64,000 nucleotides of DNA, taken from positions 4,279 through 68,278 of the IMG/VR virus record IMGVR_UViG_2854727110_000001; one strand, 5' to 3'. A program made the translations under genes and the position numbers. A model generated the notes under the pieces. It was not told the DNA's origin and did no database searches. It worked only from the letters and a program-made list of their open reading frames with translations. Below are positions 3,360 through 40,441 of this stretch, piece after piece (the first letter of the stretch is position 1; each line of letters opens with the position of its first letter). Source of the stretch: a virus. Its lineage: Duplodnaviria; Caudoviricetes.

Positions 3360-5992
3360 GTGATGTACTCTCCTAACTCGACACACGGCAGTGCGTTCAC
3401 GCCATCGTAGAAATACAATCCGGTACCGGTAAGGTCATACCCTGAGCCGCTGCCCGCGTTGCCGGCCGGACCGGAACGAGTAGGGCTGCGAACCAGATGG
3501 AACGATCCTGTGACGCCAGACAACTCGCCACCGAATCGAGCAACGCCGTTGGTAATATCAAATCCCGGCGCATGCACATCACCCGACGGATATACCTCGA
3601 AATATTTTCCGGTCGGGTAACTCCCCATCCGGAAAACGTCCGGACCCAGGTAAAACCCGCCTCCAGTCGCCGGCCAGTTCACATCGGTAAATGATCCTCC
3701 GCGAATCGATACGCCATACATATCGCCAGCATTGACATTGCCCAGGTTCGCAGACAAGGCGGACAGTCGATCGACGGACATCGCTGCGGCGGCAACCGTG
3801 CCACTGACCAGCAGTCCGCCATCGATATGCGTACCCATCAGGAGCCAGCTCCCGTTATCGAAAAACTTGGTCAGGGTAAATGTCGGCGCCGAGATGATCG
3901 GACCGTACAGCGTGACCACATCTCGATTGATGGGCGCACCGAAGCCGGCGGCGGTCAGTTCAGCGGCGGCCGACGCATCGGACCAGGTCGAGTACCCGCC
4001 AGCCACCACCGTCTTGGTGCCGCGCTGTCCCTGCGGGCCGGTGGTGCCAGGAACTCCTTGATCGCCCCGGAATTTCGACCAGACGTAATCTTCCTTGTTG
4101 CCGCTTTCTGACTGCACCGCCCGATTTACAGACAGACCGATATACATCGTGGTCGGGCCTGGAATATCGTATAGGCCGGCGCCATCGGCATAATCAGCGT
4201 ATTTAATCCAGGTATAGAGCGATAGCCCGTCCGCGCCTGGTGCGCCAGGCACTCCATCGACACCCTTGATCAGCGACCAGGTGTACTGCGCAGGATCTGT
4301 GCCTTCAATTGCAGTCGTCTGGTTGTAGGCCAGTCCGATGAATGCCTTTCCAGCAGGGTTATCGGTCAGGCCCGCACCAGCGGCGCTGTCCGCGTACTTT
4401 ACCCACGTGTACAGCGCCGGCGCCGCCGTGCCGGGTACGCCCTGGTCACCCTTGAATTTCGACCACACGTAATCGGCCGGGTTACTGCCCTCGACTTGGC
4501 TGGTGCGATTGGTCGAGAGGCCCAAGTACAGCGTATTGGCGTTCGGTGTGTCGTACATGCCGGCACCGTCCGCGACGTCCGCATACTTGATCCACGTGTA
4601 GAAGGTCTGGCCGTCGGCACCTTTCACGCCAGGCAGGCCATTTGCACCGTCGGTGCCCGGCACGCCATCAGCGCCACGAATCAGTGACCATGCGTAATCG
4701 CCTGCAGACAGGCTCTCCACTGGCGTCAGTTTGTTATAGGCAAGCCCGATCCAGGCCTTGCCGGTAGGATCGTCGACCAGGCCAGCGCCTGCGGCCGTAT
4801 CGGCATACTTCACCCATGTATAAAGTGTCGGCGCAGCCAAGCCTGGGGTACCAGGCACACCTTGATCGCCCCGGAATTTCGACCAGACGTAGTCCGTCTT
4901 CACCAGGCTTTCAACGGCCGTCGGCCGATTGGTTGCCAAGCCGATATACAGCGTGCCGTCGTTTGGCACGTCATACAAGCCGGCGCCATCAGCCTGGTCG
5001 GCGTACTTGATCCACGTGTAAAGGGTGGCTCCATCGGCACCCTTGGTGCCGGGAATGCCATCCGTTCCTTTGATCAGCGACCAGGCATAGTCACCAGGCG
5101 CTGAACTTTCAACGGGCGTCGTTTTATTGTAGGCCAGACCAATATATGCTTTACCGGATGGATCATCAGATAACCCAGCACCAGCGGCGCCGTCAGCGTA
5201 TTTGAGCCAAGTGTAATAAGTTGTCGCTGCAGCACCAGGCACGCCTTGGTCGCCCTTGAATTTCGACCAGGTGTAGTCCGCCTTGTTGTCACTCTCCACC
5301 GAAGTAGTCTTGTTGGTCGCCAGTCCCAGATACAGCGTGGCGACCGTTGGCACATCGTACAGCCCGGTACCATCCGGAAGATCCGAATATTTGATCCACG
5401 TGTAAGTCGTCAGCCCATCGGCGCCTGGCGCACCCGGTACGCCGTCCGTACCTTTGATCAGCGACCAGGTGTAATCCGCTGGGTTCGTCCCCTCGACCGG
5501 TGTTGTTTTGTTGTAGGCCAAACCGATAAACGCTTTGCCCGCAGGGCTATCCGACAGTCCTGCGCCTGCTGCGCTGTCGCCGTATTTGACCCAAGTGTAG
5601 TACGTTGCGCCATCGACACCGGCGGCGCCATTGACACCGTCGAACACCTTGCTGACCACGGCCGAGCGCAGAAACTCGACGCCGGACTCGGCGTCTTTGA
5701 CCTTGGCCTGCACGAAGGCCACATCGACCGACATATCCACAAACCGCAAGGTGGCCACTTTGCCGTCGACGGCCAGCGCCGCGCCGGCAGACACGCTGAA
5801 TTCCACAGTGCCGGTAATGCTCACCAGTTCCGCAGTGATCGTGATCGCTGCCGGCGTAGGGTTGCCGGTCCGGCTGACGGCAAACACCGGTGTACTCGCC
5901 TGCAGCAGCAATGTTTTCTCCACCACCGACACAAAATAACGCGGCACCGTATTCATGATCAGGCGGTCGCGCTCGCCCAGCAGCGCGCTCAA
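3356..5992 (-). CDS. Tail fibre/host-specificity protein with 8 tandem YTWxKY repeats and collagen-like linkers
   Basis: 878 aa; repeat array; C-terminal VDRLSALSANLGNVNAG motif resembling central tail fibre J proteins. Confidence 0.8.
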   Translation of the reverse strand: MSALLGERDRLIMNTVPRYFVSVVEKTLLLQASTPVFAVSRTGNPTPAAITITAELVSITGTVEFSVSAGAALAVDGKVATLRFVDMSVDVAFVQAKVKDAESGVEFLRSAVVSKVFDGVNGAAGVDGATYYTWVKYGDSAAGAGLSDSPAGKAFIGLAYNKTTPVEGTNPADYTWSLIKGTDGVPGAPGADGLTTYTWIKYSDLPDGTGLYDVPTVATLYLGLATNKTTSVESDNKADYTWSKFKGDQGVPGAAATTYYTWLKYADGAAGAGLSDDPSGKAYIGLAYNKTTPVESSAPGDYAWSLIKGTDGIPGTKGADGATLYTWIKYADQADGAGLYDVPNDGTLYIGLATNRPTAVESLVKTDYVWSKFRGDQGVPGTPGLAAPTLYTWVKYADTAAGAGLVDDPTGKAWIGLAYNKLTPVESLSAGDYAWSLIRGADGVPGTDGANGLPGVKGADGQTFYTWIKYADVADGAGMYDTPNANTLYLGLSTNRTSQVEGSNPADYVWSKFKGDQGVPGTAAPALYTWVKYADSAAGAGLTDNPAGKAFIGLAYNQTTAIEGTDPAQYTWSLIKGVDGVPGAPGADGLSLYTWIKYADYADGAGLYDIPGPTTMYIGLSVNRAVQSESGNKEDYVWSKFRGDQGVPGTTGPQGQRGTKTVVAGGYSTWSDASAAAELTAAGFGAPINRDVVTLYGPIISAPTFTLTKFFDNGSWLLMGTHIDGGLLVSGTVAAAAMSVDRLSALSANLGNVNAGDMYGVSIRGGSFTDVNWPATGGGFYLGPDVFRMGSYPTGKYFEVYPSGDVHAPGFDITNGVARFGGELSGVTGSFHLVRSPTRSGPAGNAGSGSGYDLTGTGLYFYDGVNALPCVELGEYIT
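4020..5610 (-). repeat. Array of 4 x (A+B) coding repeats, each about 63-74 aa
   Basis: A units YTWxKY.D.AAGAGL.D.P.GKA.IGLAYN....E.....Y.WSLI alternate with B units YTWIKY.D..DG.G.YD.P...T.Y.GL..N....E.....DY.WSKF.GDQGVPG. Confidence 0.9.
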
Positions 5993-23003: not shown

Positions 23004-24377
23004 CTATGCCGCCATCAGAGTGGGAGTAGCCGACAGGATCCGCTCCTGCTCCGCTTCCCAGTCAAGATCCGGGGAAAGGATGCCGCGCCGCTTGAGTTCG
23101 TTGAAGTAGCTTTCAGCTGACAACAGGCCGGTCGACGCGCCTTTGAACAGAAGCTCAGCGCTGGCCTCGGCCAATGTTGCGGCGCCGAAGTCTTTGTAGA
23201 CGGTGATGTGGCCACCCTCTTTTTCACCGACCCATTCAGCCATGAACTGCAACGCCTGATCAGCCGAGTCCTCGATGTTTTGCGCAACCTTCTGCAGTGC
23301 ACAGGCGCCTTGTTCGTTATCGGCAATGGTCTGGGCAACGCTGGTGCCGCCGGGCTTGATGACGAGCAGCTCGGCGCCAGACTGGCGCATCTGATCCTCC
23401 AGGTCCAGCAGCACTTGCCGACCAGCAGCAACCGCAGCACCAGACATTTCGACGTACTTCATGTCAGCCTCGGGATGATCGGCCTTGACCGCGCTTCCCG
23501 CGCCAACTGCGATCTCTGCTGCCTCAAGCATTTTGGCAAACAGGATCGGCACGCTCAGTATGTGTAAGTTGGTCTGCCGGTCGCTTTTCGTCTGCCAGTG
23601 CTCGACGTTGGCATACGCCAATTCCAGCAAAGCTGGCTTGGCACTCATAAAACCCAGGCGGTTGCCGTAGACCGGCACGAATGGAATGCGGCTGATGGTG
23701 GTCACGCCACCATCGAACACGGCCCAGTCATCGCTCTTGGCACTGTCAAGCTTGCGCCATACCTGCCAACCGCCACGGTGCAGCACGCGCACTTGCTCAA
23801 TGCTCTTGGTGGCGAACTCGCCGTCCTGCACCTTGACGACTTCCAAGAGGCGCAACTGCGACAGGCCCGCCGAATCATCAAGCCAACCCAAAATGTTTTT
23901 TGGGTGGATTTGCACAAAATACGGGCGCACAGCAGCGGCCAGCTCTTCTGCCTTGGTAACGTACAGCGGCTTGCCGTCCTTATTGCGCGTGGGAGGGTGA
24001 TCGACCAGGATGCCGCTGAAACCGAAGCCCAGCGCCTCTTGACCGACCTCCGCCAGGAAAGAATGCAGGTTGCGACCTGTGCGATCAACATCCTCGCACC
24101 AGGCTTTGAGCTTCGCCGGCACGTCATCGCCGTAGGTGACTGGCTTGCTGAATGGTTTCGCACCAAGCACCTCGATCGTGCGACCGTATGCGGGAAACAA
24201 GGTGGCGACGGCCAAGCGAATCGTATGGGCTTCGCGATCCTCGGCTGGCCATCGCGGCATGTGGGTCTCGCCGGCAGCGCGCATGGCCTTCGTGCCGCCG
24301 AGCAGCGCTTCGATCAGGTCGCAGTGCTCATTCAGCACAGCGGCCTCTGGCGATTGCTTGCGTACGGGATGGGTCAT
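23004..24377 (-). CDS. Portal protein (DUF4055-like)
   Basis: LLGGTKAMRAAGE..MP.W..E...IPFVP.YG...P.LL.LA..N..HWQ. Confidence 0.85.
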   Translation of the reverse strand: MTHPVRKQSPEAAVLNEHCDLIEALLGGTKAMRAAGETHMPRWPAEDREAHTIRLAVATLFPAYGRTIEVLGAKPFSKPVTYGDDVPAKLKAWCEDVDRTGRNLHSFLAEVGQEALGFGFSGILVDHPPTRNKDGKPLYVTKAEELAAAVRPYFVQIHPKNILGWLDDSAGLSQLRLLEVVKVQDGEFATKSIEQVRVLHRGGWQVWRKLDSAKSDDWAVFDGGVTTISRIPFVPVYGNRLGFMSAKPALLELAYANVEHWQTKSDRQTNLHILSVPILFAKMLEAAEIAVGAGSAVKADHPEADMKYVEMSGAAVAAGRQVLLDLEDQMRQSGAELLVIKPGGTSVAQTIADNEQGACALQKVAQNIEDSADQALQFMAEWVGEKEGGHITVYKDFGAATLAEASAELLFKGASTGLLSAESYFNELKRRGILSPDLDWEAEQERILSATPTLMAA

Positions 24378-24391
24378 GTAAATCCTTGTTG

Positions 24392-26590
24392 TTACATGCG
24401 CAGCGGCGATACCGTGGCGCCCTTCTTTGTGATCGGGTAGCGCTTCACGAGGAAGTAGCCGTTCGCGTCGCAGTTCGAGACAATTGGCGATTGCGCATCT
24501 AGCTTGAAGCAGCCGAGATCAGGCACTGTCAGGCAATACACCTCGCGAACGTCTTGCAGGGAAACATCCGTCACAAGACTTCCGCGTGCTGTAACGATTT
24601 GCCTCGAACGATGCACCGCACTTCCCGCAGATGCGAGTAACGTTGTCAAATCCGCTCTGCCGTCTGGCATGGGCTTTACATGCCTTGGAGCAGAATTTGA
24701 CATCGCTGTTCTTGACGGTGCTGCTTGCGGCGAACTGCTTTCCACAGCATGAGCAAGCGGCTGGAGCTGTTGCTCGAAGAGCTGCAACAGTTTTTTGATA
24801 TTGCTCTTGGTGCCACTGCTTACCGGCGTCCGATGCGTGCCATGCTTTCGTCCGCGATTGATAGGTTCTACCCATTTCGGCAATTTCATCAGCCCGCTCA
24901 TAACCATGTTCGCGGTTATGCTCGTCACCGGGCAAGCACAGCAAGTTTTCAGGCTGGTTGTTGCTGCGGTCGCCATCGACATGGTGTACGTGATGATCTC
25001 CCTGAATTGCTCCGTGCCACGCAATCCAGACTGCACGGTGGAGCCGCTTTTCTCCGTCGGACACTGAGTCTTGGAAGTATTTCCCGCAAAGGTAATAACG
25101 CCTGCCCTCAAATTCTTGACAGGTTGCACTAACGACATGCACTCGTGGCCCATCAGGTCTTTCGCTTGAATCCATTCGCCGCTCCTCACAAGAAAAAGAT
25201 GATCTTGCGAGCATTCTATAACGTAACCATTCGCAATCGTGATCTTAACTGTGCGTTTGGCACCAGTCTTGCCTGCGCCACGGTAAGGCACCCACTCGCC
25301 ATCAGGGCCAAGAACCTCGCCGGCGACGGGCAATTCATCGAACCGATATCGACCTGCGCGCGTCTGCACCATTGTGCTGGCGGTGAAGCAGGCGTGGTCA
25401 TGGCCAGACTTCTTGTCCGGCTGGCCGTCGGCGCCCCACACCTGCTGCTCCAGCGCCTCGGTCGTAGTCGGGCACAGGTCGGTATTGATCTTCCAGCGGC
25501 GCTCACCCTGGGCGTTCAGGATCATGCCGTTGTAGGCGTTGACCCGGTCCTTGACCGCAGGGTTTGAGTGGTTCACTTCGAGCAGGAAGCCCGCCTGGCG
25601 CAAAATGGACAGATCGGACTCGCTGGCGTTCTTGCTGCTGGTGTTCTGGCCGGAAGCATCCGGGAAAATCTTCACTTGGTGGCCCTTGTCCTTGAAGTCC
25701 TCCGTCAGGATCCTGGCCATGGCCGGCGTATCGCGCACTTTCACACGCTCGGCCAGTGTCATCGGCTGGCCCTCGCGAACCACGTTGATGCACGCCGTCA
25801 TGTTCAGCACGTTGAAGTCGAGGCCCACCTGCAGCGGCTCACCAGGCAGAATGATCTGCGTCGTGCGGTTTTTGAAGCGGTCAAAGTCCGGATAAACCGA
25901 GCCGCTGGTCAAGTTCGTGAACTTGCCGCGCAAGTAGGCATCGATCAGCGCTGGCGGGTAGCTGGCCAGCAGCGACGGAATGTAGTCGGCGGGCAGATTG
26001 AGCTCGTTGTCGAACGTGCTCGCCTGAATCAGGCCATACAGCGTCGCCAGCTCGGGCTTGTCGCGCACCGCCTTCACGAACTGCTGGTAGACGAACTTAA
26101 AGCCTTCCGGCGTGGTCGTCACGTCGATGCCGTTGAGCAGGCCCGGCACGTTGTAGCGCATCCGCGCGATGATCTTGCGCCAGGCCGTTTGTGCCTTGAG
26201 CATCGGCATCACGTCCAGCTCATCGATCAGCGCGTGGCCGATCTTGAAGCCGACGATGGTTTCAGGCTTCTCCATAGAGCGGCAGATGACCGTGCCGCGA
26301 TATAGCCGCCCCTCGTACACCTCGACCTCGTGATCTCCCTGCTTCACCTTGATGCGCAAGCCCATCGCATAGGCCACCTCCTCCATCGTGGGATAGAAGA
26401 TGTCGCGGATCTGCGGATAGGTCGGCGCGAAGTAACCTTGGCTGATGCCTGGCCACTGCCAGAAATGCATGCAGATACCGACGCAGCCCACGAAGGTTTT
26501 GCCGGAGCCGAAACCCGCGACATAGGCCTTGTACTTATGGGGCAGGTTCAGGAAGGCAGCCTGCGGGATATTCAGGTCAAGCTGGATCAT
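24392..26590 (-). CDS. terL: Terminase large subunit, intein-containing (about 426 aa after splicing)
   Basis: Walker A AGFGSGKT, Walker B ALIDELD, TTTPEG, nuclease-domain GLDFN; splicing restores GHDHA|CDANGY. Confidence 0.93.
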   Translation of the reverse strand: MIQLDLNIPQAAFLNLPHKYKAYVAGFGSGKTFVGCVGICMHFWQWPGISQGYFAPTYPQIRDIFYPTMEEVAYAMGLRIKVKQGDHEVEVYEGRLYRGTVICRSMEKPETIVGFKIGHALIDELDVMPMLKAQTAWRKIIARMRYNVPGLLNGIDVTTTPEGFKFVYQQFVKAVRDKPELATLYGLIQASTFDNELNLPADYIPSLLASYPPALIDAYLRGKFTNLTSGSVYPDFDRFKNRTTQIILPGEPLQVGLDFNVLNMTACINVVREGQPMTLAERVKVRDTPAMARILTEDFKDKGHQVKIFPDASGQNTSSKNASESDLSILRQAGFLLEVNHSNPAVKDRVNAYNGMILNAQGERRWKINTDLCPTTTEALEQQVWGADGQPDKKSGHDHACFTASTMVQTRAGRYRFDELPVAGEVLGPDGEWVPYRGAGKTGAKRTVKITIANGYVIECSQDHLFLVRSGEWIQAKDLMGHECMSLVQPVKNLRAGVITFAGNTSKTQCPTEKSGSTVQSGLRGTEQFREIITYTMSMATAATTSLKTCCACPVTSITANMVMSGLMKLPKWVEPINRGRKHGTHRTPVSSGTKSNIKKLLQLFEQQLQPLAHAVESSSPQAAPSRTAMSNSAPRHVKPMPDGRADLTTLLASAGSAVHRSRQIVTARGSLVTDVSLQDVREVYCLTVPDLGCFKLDAQSPIVSNCDANGYFLVKRYPITKKGATVSPLRM
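24473..25390 (-). mobile_element. Intein (306 aa) in the TerL nuclease domain
   Basis: Block A CFTASTMV (Cys1 at 25390), block B ECSQDHLF, W..A.DL, block F VYCLTV, block G IVSN followed by the +1 Cys. Confidence 0.9.
24519..25175 (-). CDS. HNH homing endonuclease with zinc fingers, encoded in a second reading frame inside the intein (218 aa)
   Basis: GAGGAG SD 6 nt before ATG 25175; LHRAVW...HHVHHVDGDRSNNQPENL...EHNREH; CSCC..CSKAC and CGKC..CDGC. Confidence 0.85.
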   Translation of the reverse strand: MDSSERPDGPRVHVVSATCQEFEGRRYYLCGKYFQDSVSDGEKRLHRAVWIAWHGAIQGDHHVHHVDGDRSNNQPENLLCLPGDEHNREHGYERADEIAEMGRTYQSRTKAWHASDAGKQWHQEQYQKTVAALRATAPAACSCCGKQFAASSTVKNSDVKFCSKACKAHARRQSGFDNVTRICGKCGASFEANRYSTRKSCDGCFPARRSRGVLPDSA

Positions 26591-27038
26591 CGTTCTTTCG
26601 CGCCCCATCCTTGACGCCGATGATGATTTGCACGGGCGTCGGCAGCTGATCGCTCGGCTCGGCCTTGCCCTTGTTCACGTAGATATCGCCCACTTCCTTG
26701 GCGGCCTGCTCGTAGAGACTGGCCACCAGCGGCAAGTTGCGCATGTTCTCGGCCTTCTGTGCCAGTCGGGCCAGGCCGCGCAGGCGAAATGCCTTGCTGG
26801 CGATCGGGATTTCCTCGGCAGTGGCGCGGAACTTGGCCCGTGTCTCTTCGAAGATCGTTCGCCATTTCTGGCTCAGGTTGCGGCCGACGTACGTGTTCGG
26901 GTCGTACAGCGACACCTGCTGGCGCGGCACATCGAGGCCGAATTCTTCCTTTACTGCAACAGATACTTGCGTCGGCGAGTCGAAACAGGCCAGCGCTGTG
27001 ACGACGTACAGCTTCACCTCGTCCTTGAGTGCGGCCAT
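26577..27038 (-). CDS. terS: Terminase small subunit-like protein (DUF2280 family)
   Basis: MAALKDEVKLYVVTALACFDSP..V...VKEEFG...YDP; directly upstream of terL. Confidence 0.75.
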   Translation of the reverse strand: MAALKDEVKLYVVTALACFDSPTQVSVAVKEEFGLDVPRQQVSLYDPNTYVGRNLSQKWRTIFEETRAKFRATAEEIPIASKAFRLRGLARLAQKAENMRNLPLVASLYEQAAKEVGDIYVNKGKAEPSDQLPTPVQIIIGVKDGARKNDDPA

Positions 27039-27068: not shown

Positions 27069-27707
27069 CTACGCAGCCTTCAGCAAACAGGTTCCGCAAG
27101 CCCTCGCGATGTTGATTCTCGCCACTTCGGGCGGTGTCTTTGCTGCATCGATCATGCGCTGCACGTCCTCGCTGGCGCCGTAGCGGCGGACCACGCCGAT
27201 GAACTCTTCGACATCGTGCGACCGCATGCACAGCTTCGGCAATCCGTACTTGTTGAATGCTGGCGCGCCGAATTCATCCATCTCTTGGGCGATGTGATAA
27301 AGCTCGTGTTCGACCAGGGCGCAGAATTCGGCGTCGCTGCAGGCCAAGCAATACGATGCGTCCAGGGTGATGAGGAAGTCCGGCACCATGCCGAACCAGT
27401 CGGCCATCTGCTGTTGCTGGCGGCCCTTTTGCCACGGCCCGCAGCGGAAGGTGACCTCTTCGCACTGACCCAGCACAGTGCGGCCCGCCTTCACGAACCC
27501 TTCCGGCGCCCACAGGAACTGCACGTCGGCATATTCCAGGTGGGCGTGGTCTTTGTTGTAGAGCGCGCCGCCTTCGGTGAGGATGGTTGCGCGCGCCCAC
27601 TTGAGCACCTCGGGCGCGGGCAGATAGCGGTTGTTCAGTGGGTCGGTGAATTCGGGTGGCGGTACCGGGCGGCCTATGCCTGGCGCAGTTGGTTGTCTGC
27701 GCGTCAT
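27069..27707 (-). CDS. Putative phage metallopeptidase
   Basis: CALVEHELYHI zincin motif and HDVEEFIGVVRRYG. Confidence 0.8.
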   Translation of the reverse strand: MTRRQPTAPGIGRPVPPPEFTDPLNNRYLPAPEVLKWARATILTEGGALYNKDHAHLEYADVQFLWAPEGFVKAGRTVLGQCEEVTFRCGPWQKGRQQQQMADWFGMVPDFLITLDASYCLACSDAEFCALVEHELYHIAQEMDEFGAPAFNKYGLPKLCMRSHDVEEFIGVVRRYGASEDVQRMIDAAKTPPEVARINIARACGTCLLKAA

Positions 27708-28641: not shown

Positions 28642-28715
28642 TGGAGCGGGTGAAGGGAGTCGAACCCTCGTGGAAAGCTTGGAAGGCTTCCGCTCTACCA
28701 TTGAGCTACGCCCGC
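28642..28715 (-). tRNA. tRNA-Gly(TCC)
   Basis: GCGGGCG TA GCTC AATGGTA GAGC G GAAGC CTTCCAA GCTTT CCAC GAGGG TTCGACT CCCTT CACCCGC T CCA; full cloverleaf, one C-A mismatch in the acceptor stem, encoded CCA. Confidence 0.93.
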
Positions 28716-38092: not shown

Positions 38093-40441
38093 TCATGCTG
38101 CCCTCCCAGCAATCTCACGCTCATGAGCGAAGTTGGCGAGGATCAACGCCTTGGCCATGGGTGGGCAGACCGAATTGCCGCACATGCGTACTTGGGCCGA
38201 CTTCGTCAGTTTCAGGCCCTGGGCGGGGTCGTCGCCGATGATGTAATCGTCGGGGAAGCCCTGGGCCCGGAACAACTCGCGCGGCTGCAGCATGCGCAGG
38301 CCGATATCCACGATCTGATAGTCCTGGCCTTGAATCGTCACCAGACCGAACCTGTCTCGGCTCGTGACCGTATTGAGGGGATCGGTAAGGCTGTGCGTCT
38401 CGCTGGCGCCGTAGTAGGCCAGCAGGAACGAGCGCACCTCGGCGTGGTGCTGTCCGCCGGCGCTGACCGTGCCCAGCGGCTCGTCGGTACCGGCCGCCGT
38501 GCTGGTGCCGCGCAGCTTGATCATGTTGCTGGTGACCAGCGCCGACTTGCCGCCACCGCCGGCCGTGACCGTGCCAAGCGGCGCATCAACGGCGTGGCCG
38601 ACGCTGGCGCCCATGTCGCGCTGGATGTGTGCCGTGACGATGCCAAGCGCATGCGGTGCGCCAGCCGGGTTTTCTTTCGGCCCGGCTGTGATGGTCGGCA
38701 GCGGTGTGTTCATGTCGCTGCCGGTGGCGCCGGTGCGGAATTTGGTGATGTGCGCCGACACCATCGAGAAATGCCCGCCCTTGACCTGGGCGCAGATCGT
38801 GCGCAGAGGCGCGTCGGCCGGCATCACGCGCTGATTGCTCGCGTTGGCGTGCTCGGTCAAGAAAGCCGTCACCAGGCTGTGGTGGTCGCATGCGGTGACT
38901 GTGCCGATAGGATCGGTCAAGTCGGATCCGACGACGCCCGTGTAATGCTTGGCCAGGAATGCGGTTGCCACGGCCTTGTTGCCGCTGGCCGTCACTGTAC
39001 CCAGCGGCGCCTCGACGTCGTGCGCGCCGGTACCCCACCGCTTCACGCCGCTTGGCGATACTTCGCCGTGGGCGGCGTCGACCAGCACGGCCGTGACCAA
39101 CGCCGCGTCAGCCTTCGATGTTGCTGTTGCCGTCGGCTCGCCCACGCCGCGCGGGCGGCTCCGGCCAGCACGGCCGCCAACACCAGTCAGCAGTGCTGAT
39201 ACCAGAGCCTGGTTGCCGGCAGCGGTAATGGTCGGCACCGGCATGTCGGCGCCAGCGCCGGGATGTCCGGTGGTGTTGGTCATCACGAATGGCACAAGCT
39301 CGGCCTCGACCAGCGCATGCTTCGCGGCCCCGCCCACAACCGTGCCCAGCGGCTTCTCGATATCCAGAGCGCGCGGCGCCTGGCCCTCACGCTCCCCGTA
39401 TCCCACCTGCACCAGCGTCGCCACTCCCAGCGCCTTCTCGCCGCGGTGCGCGCCGGTGATGGTGCGGAATGGCTCGTCGATCGATTCCGTGCGATCGCCG
39501 CCCTGGTGCGTGACCGGGACGATGGTAGGCAGCACGACAGCGCGATGGTTTTCAGTGGTCAGTGTGCCGAATGGCTGGTTTGCCGACACAGGCTTGCCGC
39601 CGTACACCGGGCCGCCCTGGCCAACGATGAACGGATCCGCCGCGTCGACCACGTAGCGCATGATGCCCTTGGCGATGCGGCGCAGCGTGGCCGGCGCCAG
39701 CGGCCGGTCGCGCTCGAAGATCGACGGGCATGGCAGGCTGAAATCGATGCACTCGGCCGCCGTTCTGTACGGCCTCAGCTTGCCGGCGCGCACCCCGATG
39801 CTGTCCGGCGCGCCATGAGTTGGCTCCGGCCACTTGATGGTAATGCCGTCGCGGCGCGCCACCAGGAAGAAACGCTTGCGGATGGTTGGCGTGTCATGGT
39901 CGCAGCCGCGCATTTCGCGGTAGTCGACGGTGTAGCCGTGCGCGCGCAGCTGGCGAATGAAGCTGTCGAAGGTCTTGCCCTTCTTCGCCGGGTCAGGCTT
40001 CGCGCTGCCGTCGGCGGCGATCAGCAGCGGACCCCACGTTTTGAATTCCTCGACGTTCTCCAGCATGATCACGCGCGGCTTGCACTTCGCCGCCCAGCGC
40101 AACGTCACCCAGGCCAGACCGCGAATCTTCTTCTCGACCGGCTTGCCGCCCTTGGCCTTGCTGAAATGCTTGCAGTCGGGCGACAGCCAGACCAGGCCCA
40201 CCGGCCGGTTGTTTGTGACCTTGATCGGGTCGACGTCCCACACGCTTTCGCACAGATGCGTGGTATGCGGGTGGTTCGCCGCGTGCATGGCCAACGCCTC
40301 GGGGTCGTGGTTGATGGCGATATCGACCGGGCGGCCGAACGCCTGCTCCAGACCGGTGCTGGTTCCGCCACCACCGGCAAAATTATCTATTATCAATTCG
40401 CTACCAAGATCGAGCGACAAGGTGAAGAGGTCGCGCTTCAT
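38093..40441 (-). CDS. DNA (cytosine-5) methyltransferase with expanded repeat region
   Basis: DNFAGGGG (I), SPDCKHFS (IV), ENV (VI), RKRFF (VIII), LRML.PREL..AQGFP (IX), GNSV (X). Confidence 0.92.
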   Translation of the reverse strand: MKRDLFTLSLDLGSELIIDNFAGGGGTSTGLEQAFGRPVDIAINHDPEALAMHAANHPHTTHLCESVWDVDPIKVTNNRPVGLVWLSPDCKHFSKAKGGKPVEKKIRGLAWVTLRWAAKCKPRVIMLENVEEFKTWGPLLIAADGSAKPDPAKKGKTFDSFIRQLRAHGYTVDYREMRGCDHDTPTIRKRFFLVARRDGITIKWPEPTHGAPDSIGVRAGKLRPYRTAAECIDFSLPCPSIFERDRPLAPATLRRIAKGIMRYVVDAADPFIVGQGGPVYGGKPVSANQPFGTLTTENHRAVVLPTIVPVTHQGGDRTESIDEPFRTITGAHRGEKALGVATLVQVGYGEREGQAPRALDIEKPLGTVVGGAAKHALVEAELVPFVMTNTTGHPGAGADMPVPTITAAGNQALVSALLTGVGGRAGRSRPRGVGEPTATATSKADAALVTAVLVDAAHGEVSPSGVKRWGTGAHDVEAPLGTVTASGNKAVATAFLAKHYTGVVGSDLTDPIGTVTACDHHSLVTAFLTEHANASNQRVMPADAPLRTICAQVKGGHFSMVSAHITKFRTGATGSDMNTPLPTITAGPKENPAGAPHALGIVTAHIQRDMGASVGHAVDAPLGTVTAGGGGKSALVTSNMIKLRGTSTAAGTDEPLGTVSAGGQHHAEVRSFLLAYYGASETHSLTDPLNTVTSRDRFGLVTIQGQDYQIVDIGLRMLQPRELFRAQGFPDDYIIGDDPAQGLKLTKSAQVRMCGNSVCPPMAKALILANFAHEREIAGRAA

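Follow-up and report, generated by a model that had tools for sequence, protein, structure and literature searches.

The stretch of DNA analysed here, hereafter the window, comprises 64,000 nucleotides (nt) of a tailed-phage record in IMG/VR (IMGVR_UViG_2854727110_000001, positions 4,279 to 68,278). Its minus strand carries a prophage gene for the large subunit of the terminase, terL, which matched Terminase_6N (3.7e-27) and Terminase_6C (4e-10) in Pfam as well as phrog_2 and phrog_10250 in PHROG, both labelled 'terminase large subunit'. A predicted intein interrupts the TerL protein near its C-terminal end. Over the same DNA, on the same strand but in another frame, lies an open reading frame (ORF) for an HNH endonuclease. 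The features of the locus are collected in Table 1.

The initial annotation had described an intein of 306 amino acids (aa) that keeps the TerL frame free of stops, and this description held. TerL residues 433-738 run from CFTAST to IVSN and are followed by Cys. The intein motifs C1, S61-Q-D-H64, N306 and Cys+1 were present; C1, H64, N306 and V284/C286/L287/T288 were invariant in 13 aligned inteins, as was the +1 Cys in alignment A1. The (T/S)xxH motif is known as block B. An AlphaFold model based on the 13 inteins reached pLDDT (predicted local distance difference test) scores of 75-93 for residues 1-89 and 268-306 and stayed below 50 for residues 90-267. In Foldseek, 25 chains matched it at E <= 0.001, and solved inteins such as Ssp DnaE, MchDnaB-1, Npu DnaE and gp41-1 did so with probability 1.00. 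The centre of the intein is rich in Ser and Thr (23% of residues 90-267, compared with 10% of the extein) and holds no recognisable motif, matching no Pfam or PHROG family save for a spurious match to MUCL1; both properties had been noticed initially. We interpret the insert as a class 1-like Hint-domain intein, and its conserved residues, together with the viable phages that share the layout, suggest that it splices.

Two other assignments were considered and rejected. Class 3 inteins have no N-terminal nucleophile and carry Trp in block B, Cys at position 4 of block F and Thr in block G. The invariant block F Cys of the window intein (VYCLTV) fits this class, but Cys1 is present and the residues in blocks B and G are Phe and Val. 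A split intein in a fractured gene was rejected for the window as terL there is one open frame.

Table 1. Coordinates of terL, its predicted intein and the nested HNH gene in the window.
Feature	Position	Strand	Basis
terL precursor ORF, 738 aa including the intein	24392..26608	-	single open frame; Pfam and PHROG terminase matches
N-extein, TerL residues 1-432, ending in GHDHA	25391..26608	-	alignment with intein-less TerL ends at DH(A/P); intein-less contigs join there
Intein (predicted), 306 aa, Cys1 to Asn306	24473..25390	-	918 nt without a stop; aligned inteins; Foldseek
N-terminal splicing domain, intein residues 1-89, blocks A and B (C1, S61-Q-D-H64)	25124..25390	-	pLDDT 75-93
Read-through linker in the TerL frame, intein residues 90-267; stop-free, unconserved, predicted unstructured	24590..25123	-	pLDDT <50
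C-terminal splicing domain, intein residues 268-306, blocks F and G (VYCLTVPDLGCFKL ... IVSN)	24473..24589	-	pLDDT 85-93; kept in alignments A2 and A4
C-extein (Cys+1, DANGYFLVKRYPITKKGATVSPLRM, stop)	24392..24472	-	frame; AUS531phi alignment; contigs
HNH endonuclease ORF, 218 aa and TGA, +2 frame relative to terL; HNH_3 core, then two zinc-ribbon Cys clusters	24519..25175	-	Pfam, PHROG, alignment, AlphaFold2
Shine-Dalgarno-like GAGGAG, 6 nt before the HNH ATG (25173-25175), within intein codons V-R-S	25182..25187	-	sequence
N-terminal overlap, conserved sequence in both frames	25127..25175	-	2/49 differences from L002
C-terminal overlap, where the HNH tail coincides with the beginning of the C-terminal splicing domain and block F	24519..24586	-	9/68 differences from L002

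The second-frame ORF extends over 24519..25214 (231 aa) and encodes 218 aa when read from its ATG. Scored on its own, this frame reached 45.4 bits with Pfam HNH_3, for which the cut-off is 24.8, and matched phrog_15471 'HNH endonuclease' with 5e-38; there was no match in NCBIfam. The two Cys clusters of the protein are CxxC...CxxxC and CxxC...CxxC, the first of which was invariant in 23/23 aligned ORFs. In this alignment (A3), H46, H64, H65, H86, W112, H113, C141, C144, C162 and C166 were invariant, and N72, N73 and N77 were at least 90% conserved. The AlphaFold2 model computed from the 23 nested ORFs had a mean pLDDT of 86.9. Among solved structures, the HNH profile matched the catalytic core of I-HmuI (1u3e; E 0.0044, positions 36-96). 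Searching the whole model against the PDB with Foldseek gave no match at E <= 0.001, with I-HmuI being the best. The G+C (guanine plus cytosine) content of the HNH ORF was 53.6%, compared with 60.7% for the terL extein and 61.2% for the whole window. The TGA of the HNH gene falls inside block F, spanning intein residues P290/D291 in VYCLTVPDLGCFKL. The initial annotation was thus accurate on the second-frame gene, its Cys clusters and its end.

A canonical intein with an in-frame HNH domain and two compensating indel errors could give the same picture, and the frame switches do fall at the domain borders, as two border errors would have it. We compared window positions 24000-26000 with assembled contigs of four public runs, at 88% likeness. 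Contigs from all four runs, which stem from four studies, crossed the intein without an indel within 24473-25390. The contig of run X4 (24432-25417) had 67 differences and no gap, that of run X3 covered 24372-25454, and the only indels listed in the region lay at 24409-24431, outside the intein. The closest IMG/VR relative (L002, 77% nucleotide identity) aligned without gaps across the intein and both flanks, and no indel was seen against a further relative, L015. All six database proteins matching the intein region were full-length TerL proteins of 720-757 aa. Furthermore, a single register was kept in 27/27 embedded loci, which come from unrelated assemblies and count four isolated phages among them, 47 to 51 of 80 further loci had the nested layout, and the overlaps hold meaningful sequence in both frames. 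The runs, L002 and the conserved register of the relatives exclude the compensating indels against which the initial annotation had cautioned. An artefact of sequencing or assembly is left with a negligible probability, and we regard it as practically certain that the layout is real and selected.

The relatives were collected in two samples. The first came from scanning IMG/VR and the genomes of species representatives with the intein, which yielded 32 locus rows with matches to both the N-terminal splicing domain and the HNH gene. In 28 of these the HNH gene lay in relative frame 2 (+2, which equals -1) and the TerL frame extended beyond the HNH stop; where a match to the C-terminal splicing domain was found in those 28 rows, it was back in the TerL frame. 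In the other four rows (L047/L048, 3001-4080, and L052/L053, 2938-3564) a distantly similar HNH segment is in frame with the splicing domain, which is the canonical form. These rows look like canonical HNH inteins rather than members of the same family and were left out of the counts. Duplicates were removed (L003, L023, L025, L032, L036, L044 and L046), and L037, a fragment without an N-terminal splicing match, was not used. The contig scan of species representatives gave nine loci, with the HNH family in L007 only; the other eight share the N-terminal splicing domain alone and were not used.

In the window and 21 of these loci, the TerL frame contained no stop over the HNH ORF (22/22) whilst the third frame contained 4-35; the window itself had 0 and 15. 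When each HNH ORF was shuffled 2000 times among synonymous codons, 0.3-4.3 stops were expected in the TerL frame, which came out stop-free in 0-68% of trials and, for the window, in just 5%. The same stop-free layout was found in L004, where the gene is nested in another terL intein, and in four cultured phages: Tetrasphaera phage TJE1, Acinetobacter phage Highwayman, Clostridium phage phiCDHM19 and Rhodobacteraceae phage LS06-2018-MD07. The records of these four annotate just one long terminase gene. This brings the embedded loci to 27, all of them stop-free in the TerL frame, whereas free-standing homologues contained 1-12 stops in the same relative frame (7/7). Across these comparisons, the absence of stops from the TerL frame over the HNH gene exceeds chance.

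The second sample consisted of the best 80 of 472 confirmed IMG/VR relatives by HNH similarity; near-identical loci occur among them, and seven are contigs already present in the first sample. Within it, 47 loci were contiguous, with both intein halves, the HNH gene at +2 and no stops, and four more are probably the same with one half undetected. One contiguous locus had the HNH gene at +1. In 22 loci the intein halves were found but the host frame was interrupted, in five no intein half was found, and in one (L139) the frame broke within the N-terminal splicing domain. No stop occurred in any of the loci with both halves in the +2 register. The +1 locus, L090 (3-2570), is the sole contiguous nested case of its kind and lies on a GC-rich contig, where that frame too happens to be stop-free. 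In L139 the terL frame breaks at 1598-1634, where the sequence around TDRGFV recurs in two frames; the break reflects a frameshift, a pseudogene or a fault in assembly. A distant HNH relative was also seen in the Vibrio phages 1.245.O and 1.238.A/B (MG592610.1, MG592603.1, MG592604.1), under features called 'hedgehog/hint domain protein' and 'terminase large subunit'. These records may be further nested or split cases.

Next, substitutions between the window and L002 were counted by frame. Over the part encoding the N-terminal splicing domain, differences peaked at TerL third positions (29/71, compared with 14/72 and 9/72). Over the central 540 nt they instead peaked at HNH third positions, which are TerL second positions (83/180, compared with 18/180 and 14/180), and the aa identity there was 83% for the HNH frame but 52% for the TerL frame. 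Against L015 the corresponding values were 59% and 30%, which repeats this picture. Taken together, these patterns indicate purifying selection on the HNH frame and relaxed selection on the TerL frame over the central overlap, where the TerL frame is constrained only in having to stay free of stops. Elsewhere in the intein 21-24% of positions differed, and change was slower only in the 49-nt overlap and, less strongly, in the 68-nt overlap. The initial annotation had proposed about 650 nt under double constraint. This stands for about 120 nt, the sum of the two terminal overlaps, but not for the central 540 nt, where stop avoidance alone is seen.

We then considered how the HNH protein could be produced. 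The codons V-R-S-G-E-W, in which both the Shine-Dalgarno (SD) motif and the ATG had been reported to lie, do read GTG AGG AGC GGC GAA TGG. A start codon preceded the conserved HNH N-terminus at 27/27 loci (ATG in 24, GTG in 3). In 17/27 embedded loci it was preceded, at a spacing of 3-13 nt, by an SD-like core no shorter than 4 nt, compared with 13.7% of all positions in the same loci, and a core of 5 nt or more was found in 12/27 against a background of 2.8%; since the loci are related, binomial figures for this excess overstate its significance and are indicative only. In the close clade of seven members, the ATG is always formed by a third-position A and the invariant Trp codon TGG of the intein, whilst the codon before Trp encodes varying residues (E, K, S, S, K, K, L). 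This clade likewise keeps the purine-rich SD core while the overlying TerL residues vary.

Since +2 equals -1, the obvious rival to internal initiation is programmed -1 frameshifting near the end of the N-terminal splicing domain, which would yield a fusion of N-extein, N-intein and HNH and no free HNH protein. The geometry permits it, the HNH frame of the window is open for 23 codons upstream of the ATG, and SD-like elements within coding sequence can promote frameshifting. However, the interval from the nearest HNH-frame stop upstream to the HNH start lacked an X XXY YYZ heptamer in the TerL frame in 24/27 loci, the window among them; slippery heptamers occurred in L018, L028 and L039 only, at non-homologous places. 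An HNH-frame stop lay at most 10 codons upstream of the start in 17/27 loci, and only 0-1 codons upstream in L019, L022, L043 and L054. The start codon is kept at every locus, in the close clade by conservation of a third position, and split relatives carry the same HNH gene as a stand-alone ORF. We therefore consider frameshifting very improbable. The conserved start codon and SD, together with the lack of slippery sites, favour independent initiation, and an internal start is the probable source of the HNH protein. The comparison of homologues that the initial annotation had called for came out in its favour: relatives keep both frames open, the start codon throughout and the SD-like core in most cases, and the HNH frame is under purifying selection. 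This comparative evidence backs the proposal that the HNH gene is separate, with its own internal start, in an intein frame kept free of stops.

Intein-less alleles were sought amongst related terL genes. The TerL of Pseudomonas phage AUS531phi (431 aa, 58% identical) contains no intein; its alignment runs to DH-P and resumes at N-DAAGYF, stopping and resuming at the intein borders, which indicates that the insertion is exact. The sizes agree as well, as 738 less 306 leaves 432 aa. Two of the four runs (X4 and X6) contained intein-less contigs in which 24470 and 25394 are linked by five other letters, so that 918 nt net are missing; with 88% likeness and sides of 30-39 letters, these joints come from related terL genes, which need not belong to the same phage. 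By manual reading, the codons at the joint are Pro-Asn in place of Ala-[intein]-Cys, as in the empty site of AUS531phi. A search for the intein protein in 100 related genomes found it in none (0/100). The empty sites, the low G+C content of the HNH gene and the sporadic presence of the intein are consistent with a homing element.

We propose the following arrangement. A mini-intein with a Hint domain would sit in the nuclease-domain motif GHDH/xDAxGYF of the prophage TerL (the slash marking the insertion point). Its loop, the place of a canonical in-frame endonuclease, would instead hold a complete HNH_3/zinc-ribbon gene of the free-standing type in the +2 frame, so that one mRNA would give two proteins. 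Ribosomes coming from the terL start would read through the HNH gene and produce a stop-free, unconstrained and unstructured linker of about 178 residues between the splicing halves. These halves would fold together, and the 306-aa insert would be spliced out to leave a TerL of 432 aa. Ribosomes starting at the internal GAGGAG-N6-ATG would make the 218-aa HNH protein, which would most likely nick or cleave the intein-less terL of co-infecting relatives, resulting in homing of the cassette of intein and HNH gene.

We consider this full mechanism, with internal initiation, splicing in cis and a homing role, to be probable, but several points weigh against it. Internal initiation, splicing, nuclease activity and homing are all activities that we infer. 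No SD-like motif preceded the HNH start at 10/27 loci, in addition to the relatedness of the loci already mentioned. The intein scored under curated cut-offs with both Pfam Intein_splicing (26.2 bits, cut-off 35.8) and TIGR01445 (18.8, cut-off 24.5), although the E-values of 8e-6 and 0.0024 are still suggestive. It has Cys instead of Asp at the block F position and Ser instead of His as its penultimate residue, and its splicing chemistry may thus be atypical. These low scores and unusual residues are a caveat for the chemistry of the intein, not for its identity. The Foldseek match of the whole HNH model to I-HmuI was weak (E 0.27). Finally, the intein-less joints derive from related genes, and the presence/absence polymorphism fits precise loss as well as it fits homing.

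Some of the same observations could also be accounted for by a decaying element, with either an HNH gene that survives only as a dead relic, or an intein that has stopped splicing in a prophage terL that has lost its function. Decay is frequent in prophages, the intein falls under the curated cut-offs, and it was absent from all of the related genomes searched. By contrast, the HNH frame is under purifying selection with its catalytic and zinc residues invariant, and no variation is seen at the splicing residues C1, H64, N306 and Cys+1. Plaque-forming phages have this layout in their only terL, and the adjacent portal, head-morphogenesis, major-head and tape-measure genes of the window are intact ORFs with strong PHROG matches. 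Decay is thus highly unlikely.

The HNH protein could also act mainly with the terminase, as a cofactor for packaging or cos cleavage or as a nickase, and have been placed in terL for co-expression. In line with this, free-standing homologues lie within two genes of terL or terS in PAE1, SN1, vB_EauM-23, Poludnitsa, BP10 and Shemara (the record of Ec1-ASingh is unannotated), those of PAE1, SN1, Shemara and Ec1-ASingh being 41-49% identical. Zinc-ribbon HNH nickases beside terminase genes have moreover been described, with speculation about a role in packaging, by Xu and Gupta 2013 (PMC3592412). Adjacency to terL is, however, also predicted by the 'intron-less homing' of free-standing nucleases. 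The genome of AUS531phi (48,430 bp) gave no match to HNH_3, the only HNH family searched there, which argues against a nuclease needed by this terminase type. Intein-less and intein-bearing alleles coexist, the best solved relative is the homing nuclease I-HmuI, and the G+C content of the HNH ORF is below that of its host gene. A packaging role is therefore unlikely, and homing is the function that we prefer.

To place the nested gene amongst its homologues, a FastTree phylogeny of 35 HNH proteins was calculated with SH-like (Shimodaira-Hasegawa) supports and a midpoint root. Free-standing and nested genes interleaved. The free-standing gene of Acinetobacter phage BP10 paired with the nested gene of Highwayman (support 0.98), the Ec1-ASingh gene was sister to the window clade (0.97), and the Poludnitsa gene fell inside an embedded clade (1.0).

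A third form is seen in Lactobacillus phage CL2 (L064, KR905067.1, 1-2257). Its terL ORF ends at 1437 with an N-terminal splicing domain (AHDH/CLTGDTIV...), followed by an annotated HNH gene (1450-2073) and an unannotated ORF (1973-2257) that holds a C-terminal splicing domain and the C-extein (...FIVHN/CMDATRYF...). Judged by these ORFs, the CL2 terL is a fractured gene with a split intein in an isolated phage. The split layout is common in IMG/VR and accounts for 22/80 HNH-selected loci (within L092-L144), for example L094 (186-2576) and L104 (1-2536). In L104, as in eight loci nearly identical to it, two additional short ORFs of 68 and 75 aa separate the N-intein ORF from the HNH gene.

Most likely, the layout arose when a free-standing HNH gene adjacent to the terminase genes invaded a mini-intein. 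The register may follow from the codons of the nuclease: the frame reading HNH codon positions 2-3-1 has 0.3-4.3 stops expected, and the other frame 5-30. The small number expected at +2 offers a simple reason for the use of this register by nearly all contiguous forms, the single exception being GC-rich. If +2 is the only register that is easily rescued, its recurrence in the published actinophage and DnaX cases discussed below would be explained as well. It is possible, though we advance it tentatively and at somewhat less than even odds, that the HNH lineage moves repeatedly among three states (free-standing beside terL, between the halves of a split intein, and nested out of frame), forming a living series for the long-proposed origin of composite inteins by entry of a free-standing nuclease into a mini-intein, with the +2 register set by stop arithmetic. 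A bolder extension is that nesting confines synthesis of the nuclease to late translation of terL, when co-infecting targets are present.

Inteins are usually taught as single in-frame fusions of splicing and nuclease domains. A suspicion in the initial annotation that alternative-frame intein nucleases had been reported before was well founded, as both out-of-frame and antisense cases are in print. The Gosselin preprint (bioRxiv 10.1101/2025.01.02.630785) describes actinophage cases on the same strand and in the same relative frame as here (frame 3, that is +2), with terminase large subunits amongst the hosts, and also antisense LAGLIDADG and VSR-like homing endonucleases. As in the window, the in-frame translation of the nuclease region is unstructured in predicted models and the nuclease is related to free-standing phage nucleases, whose invasion of the intein is proposed as the origin. 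The nuclease of those cases belongs to InterPro IPR004211 (1E7D, residues 1-67; endonuclease VII-like), whereas that of the window combines HNH_3 with two zinc ribbons and has I-HmuI as its nearest relative; the two are set apart by description and may still be homologous. Searches by tblastn with the HNH proteins of the window and of TJE1 returned no mycobacteriophage-type records among the matches listed. The survey was confined to PhagesDB, and an analysis of start codons and SD motifs, a test of stop avoidance and split relatives, all given here, were not met with in the accessible text of that preprint.

A second comparable case is the cyanobacterial DnaX intein of Phillips, DeSimone and Gogarten (bioRxiv 10.64898/2026.09.14.751524), which contains a LAGLIDADG ORF in the +2 frame; the same source credits Gorbalenya 1998 with the first proposal of a homing endonuclease lying out of frame in an intein. 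Shared with the window are a +2 nuclease between the splicing domains, a constrained nuclease frame and a relaxed host frame in the overlap, the coexistence of intein-free and intein-bearing alleles and a proposed secondary invasion of a mini-intein. The DnaX case differs in its cellular dnaX host, its LAGLIDADG nuclease and its cyanobacterial lineage, as opposed to the phage HNH gene here. Arsenault et al. 2025 (PMC11855218) found a ShiLan-domain 'hidden' out-of-frame HNH inside a mycobacteriophage DNA methylase. There too a stop-free host ORF harbours an HNH gene in another frame, and the question of its mode of translation was raised. That insert has no splicing domains and stays in the host protein, whereas the Hint intein here would remove it. 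The ShiLan HNH has a GTG start and no detectable ribosome-binding site, and leaderless-type initiation was proposed, whereas SD motifs and ATG starts are common in the present family.

The split relatives CL2, L094 and L104, with their order of N-intein ORF, HNH ORF and C-intein ORF, resemble the fractured genes of Dassa et al. 2009 (PMC2677866), in which a free-standing endonuclease gene lies between the halves of a split intein. The window differs in that its host frame is contiguous and splicing would occur in cis, and the endonuclease family of Dassa et al. is a different one, as described there and in the Gosselin preprint. I-HmuI and the terminase-adjacent zinc-ribbon nickases (PMC3592412) share with the window protein an HNH core followed by C-terminal Cys4 zinc ribbons, but these are stand-alone genes or intron ORFs, whereas the present gene is nested out of frame in an intein. 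Our literature search, which had most subscription journals outside its reach, found no report of this HNH_3/zinc-ribbon family in an out-of-frame layout, nothing on the HNH family of this layout outside actinophages and nothing on the inteins of TJE1 or phiCDHM19. The kind of layout is thus already known, though rare. As far as that search reached, new here are the presence of this HNH family in it and its breadth across phages.

The window belongs to a large nested family that spans phages of several phyla (of Tetrasphaera, Acinetobacter and Clostridium, with one labelled Rhodobacteraceae). A nuclease kept as a separate overlapping gene shows how composite inteins can form and that homing need not be genetically tied to splicing. 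In practice, the nested nuclease escapes gene callers, and terL products are mis-sized. The matched contiguous, split and free-standing forms provide a test set for the initiation of overlapping genes within a translated ORF and for the tolerance of junk by the intein loop. The gain is one of breadth and of a cleaner test system, not of a new principle.

The neighbours of terL in the window form a morphogenesis block with a terS-like ORF and genes for portal, head-morphogenesis, major-head, minor-tail and tape-measure proteins. Immediately upstream of the packaging genes lie a tRNA-Gly(TCC) (28642-28715, minus strand) and an ORF of the PhageMetallopep family, which PHROG labels 'transposase' (27069-27707, minus strand). 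Further along, 38093-40441 (minus strand) encodes a C5 cytosine DNA methyltransferase of 782 aa, whose Pfam match falls into two stretches; Pfam detected no intein in it. The roughly 470 residues between the stretches consist of about 10 repeated modules ending in P-L-G-T-V-T-A-like motifs, which may be tandem target-recognition modules.

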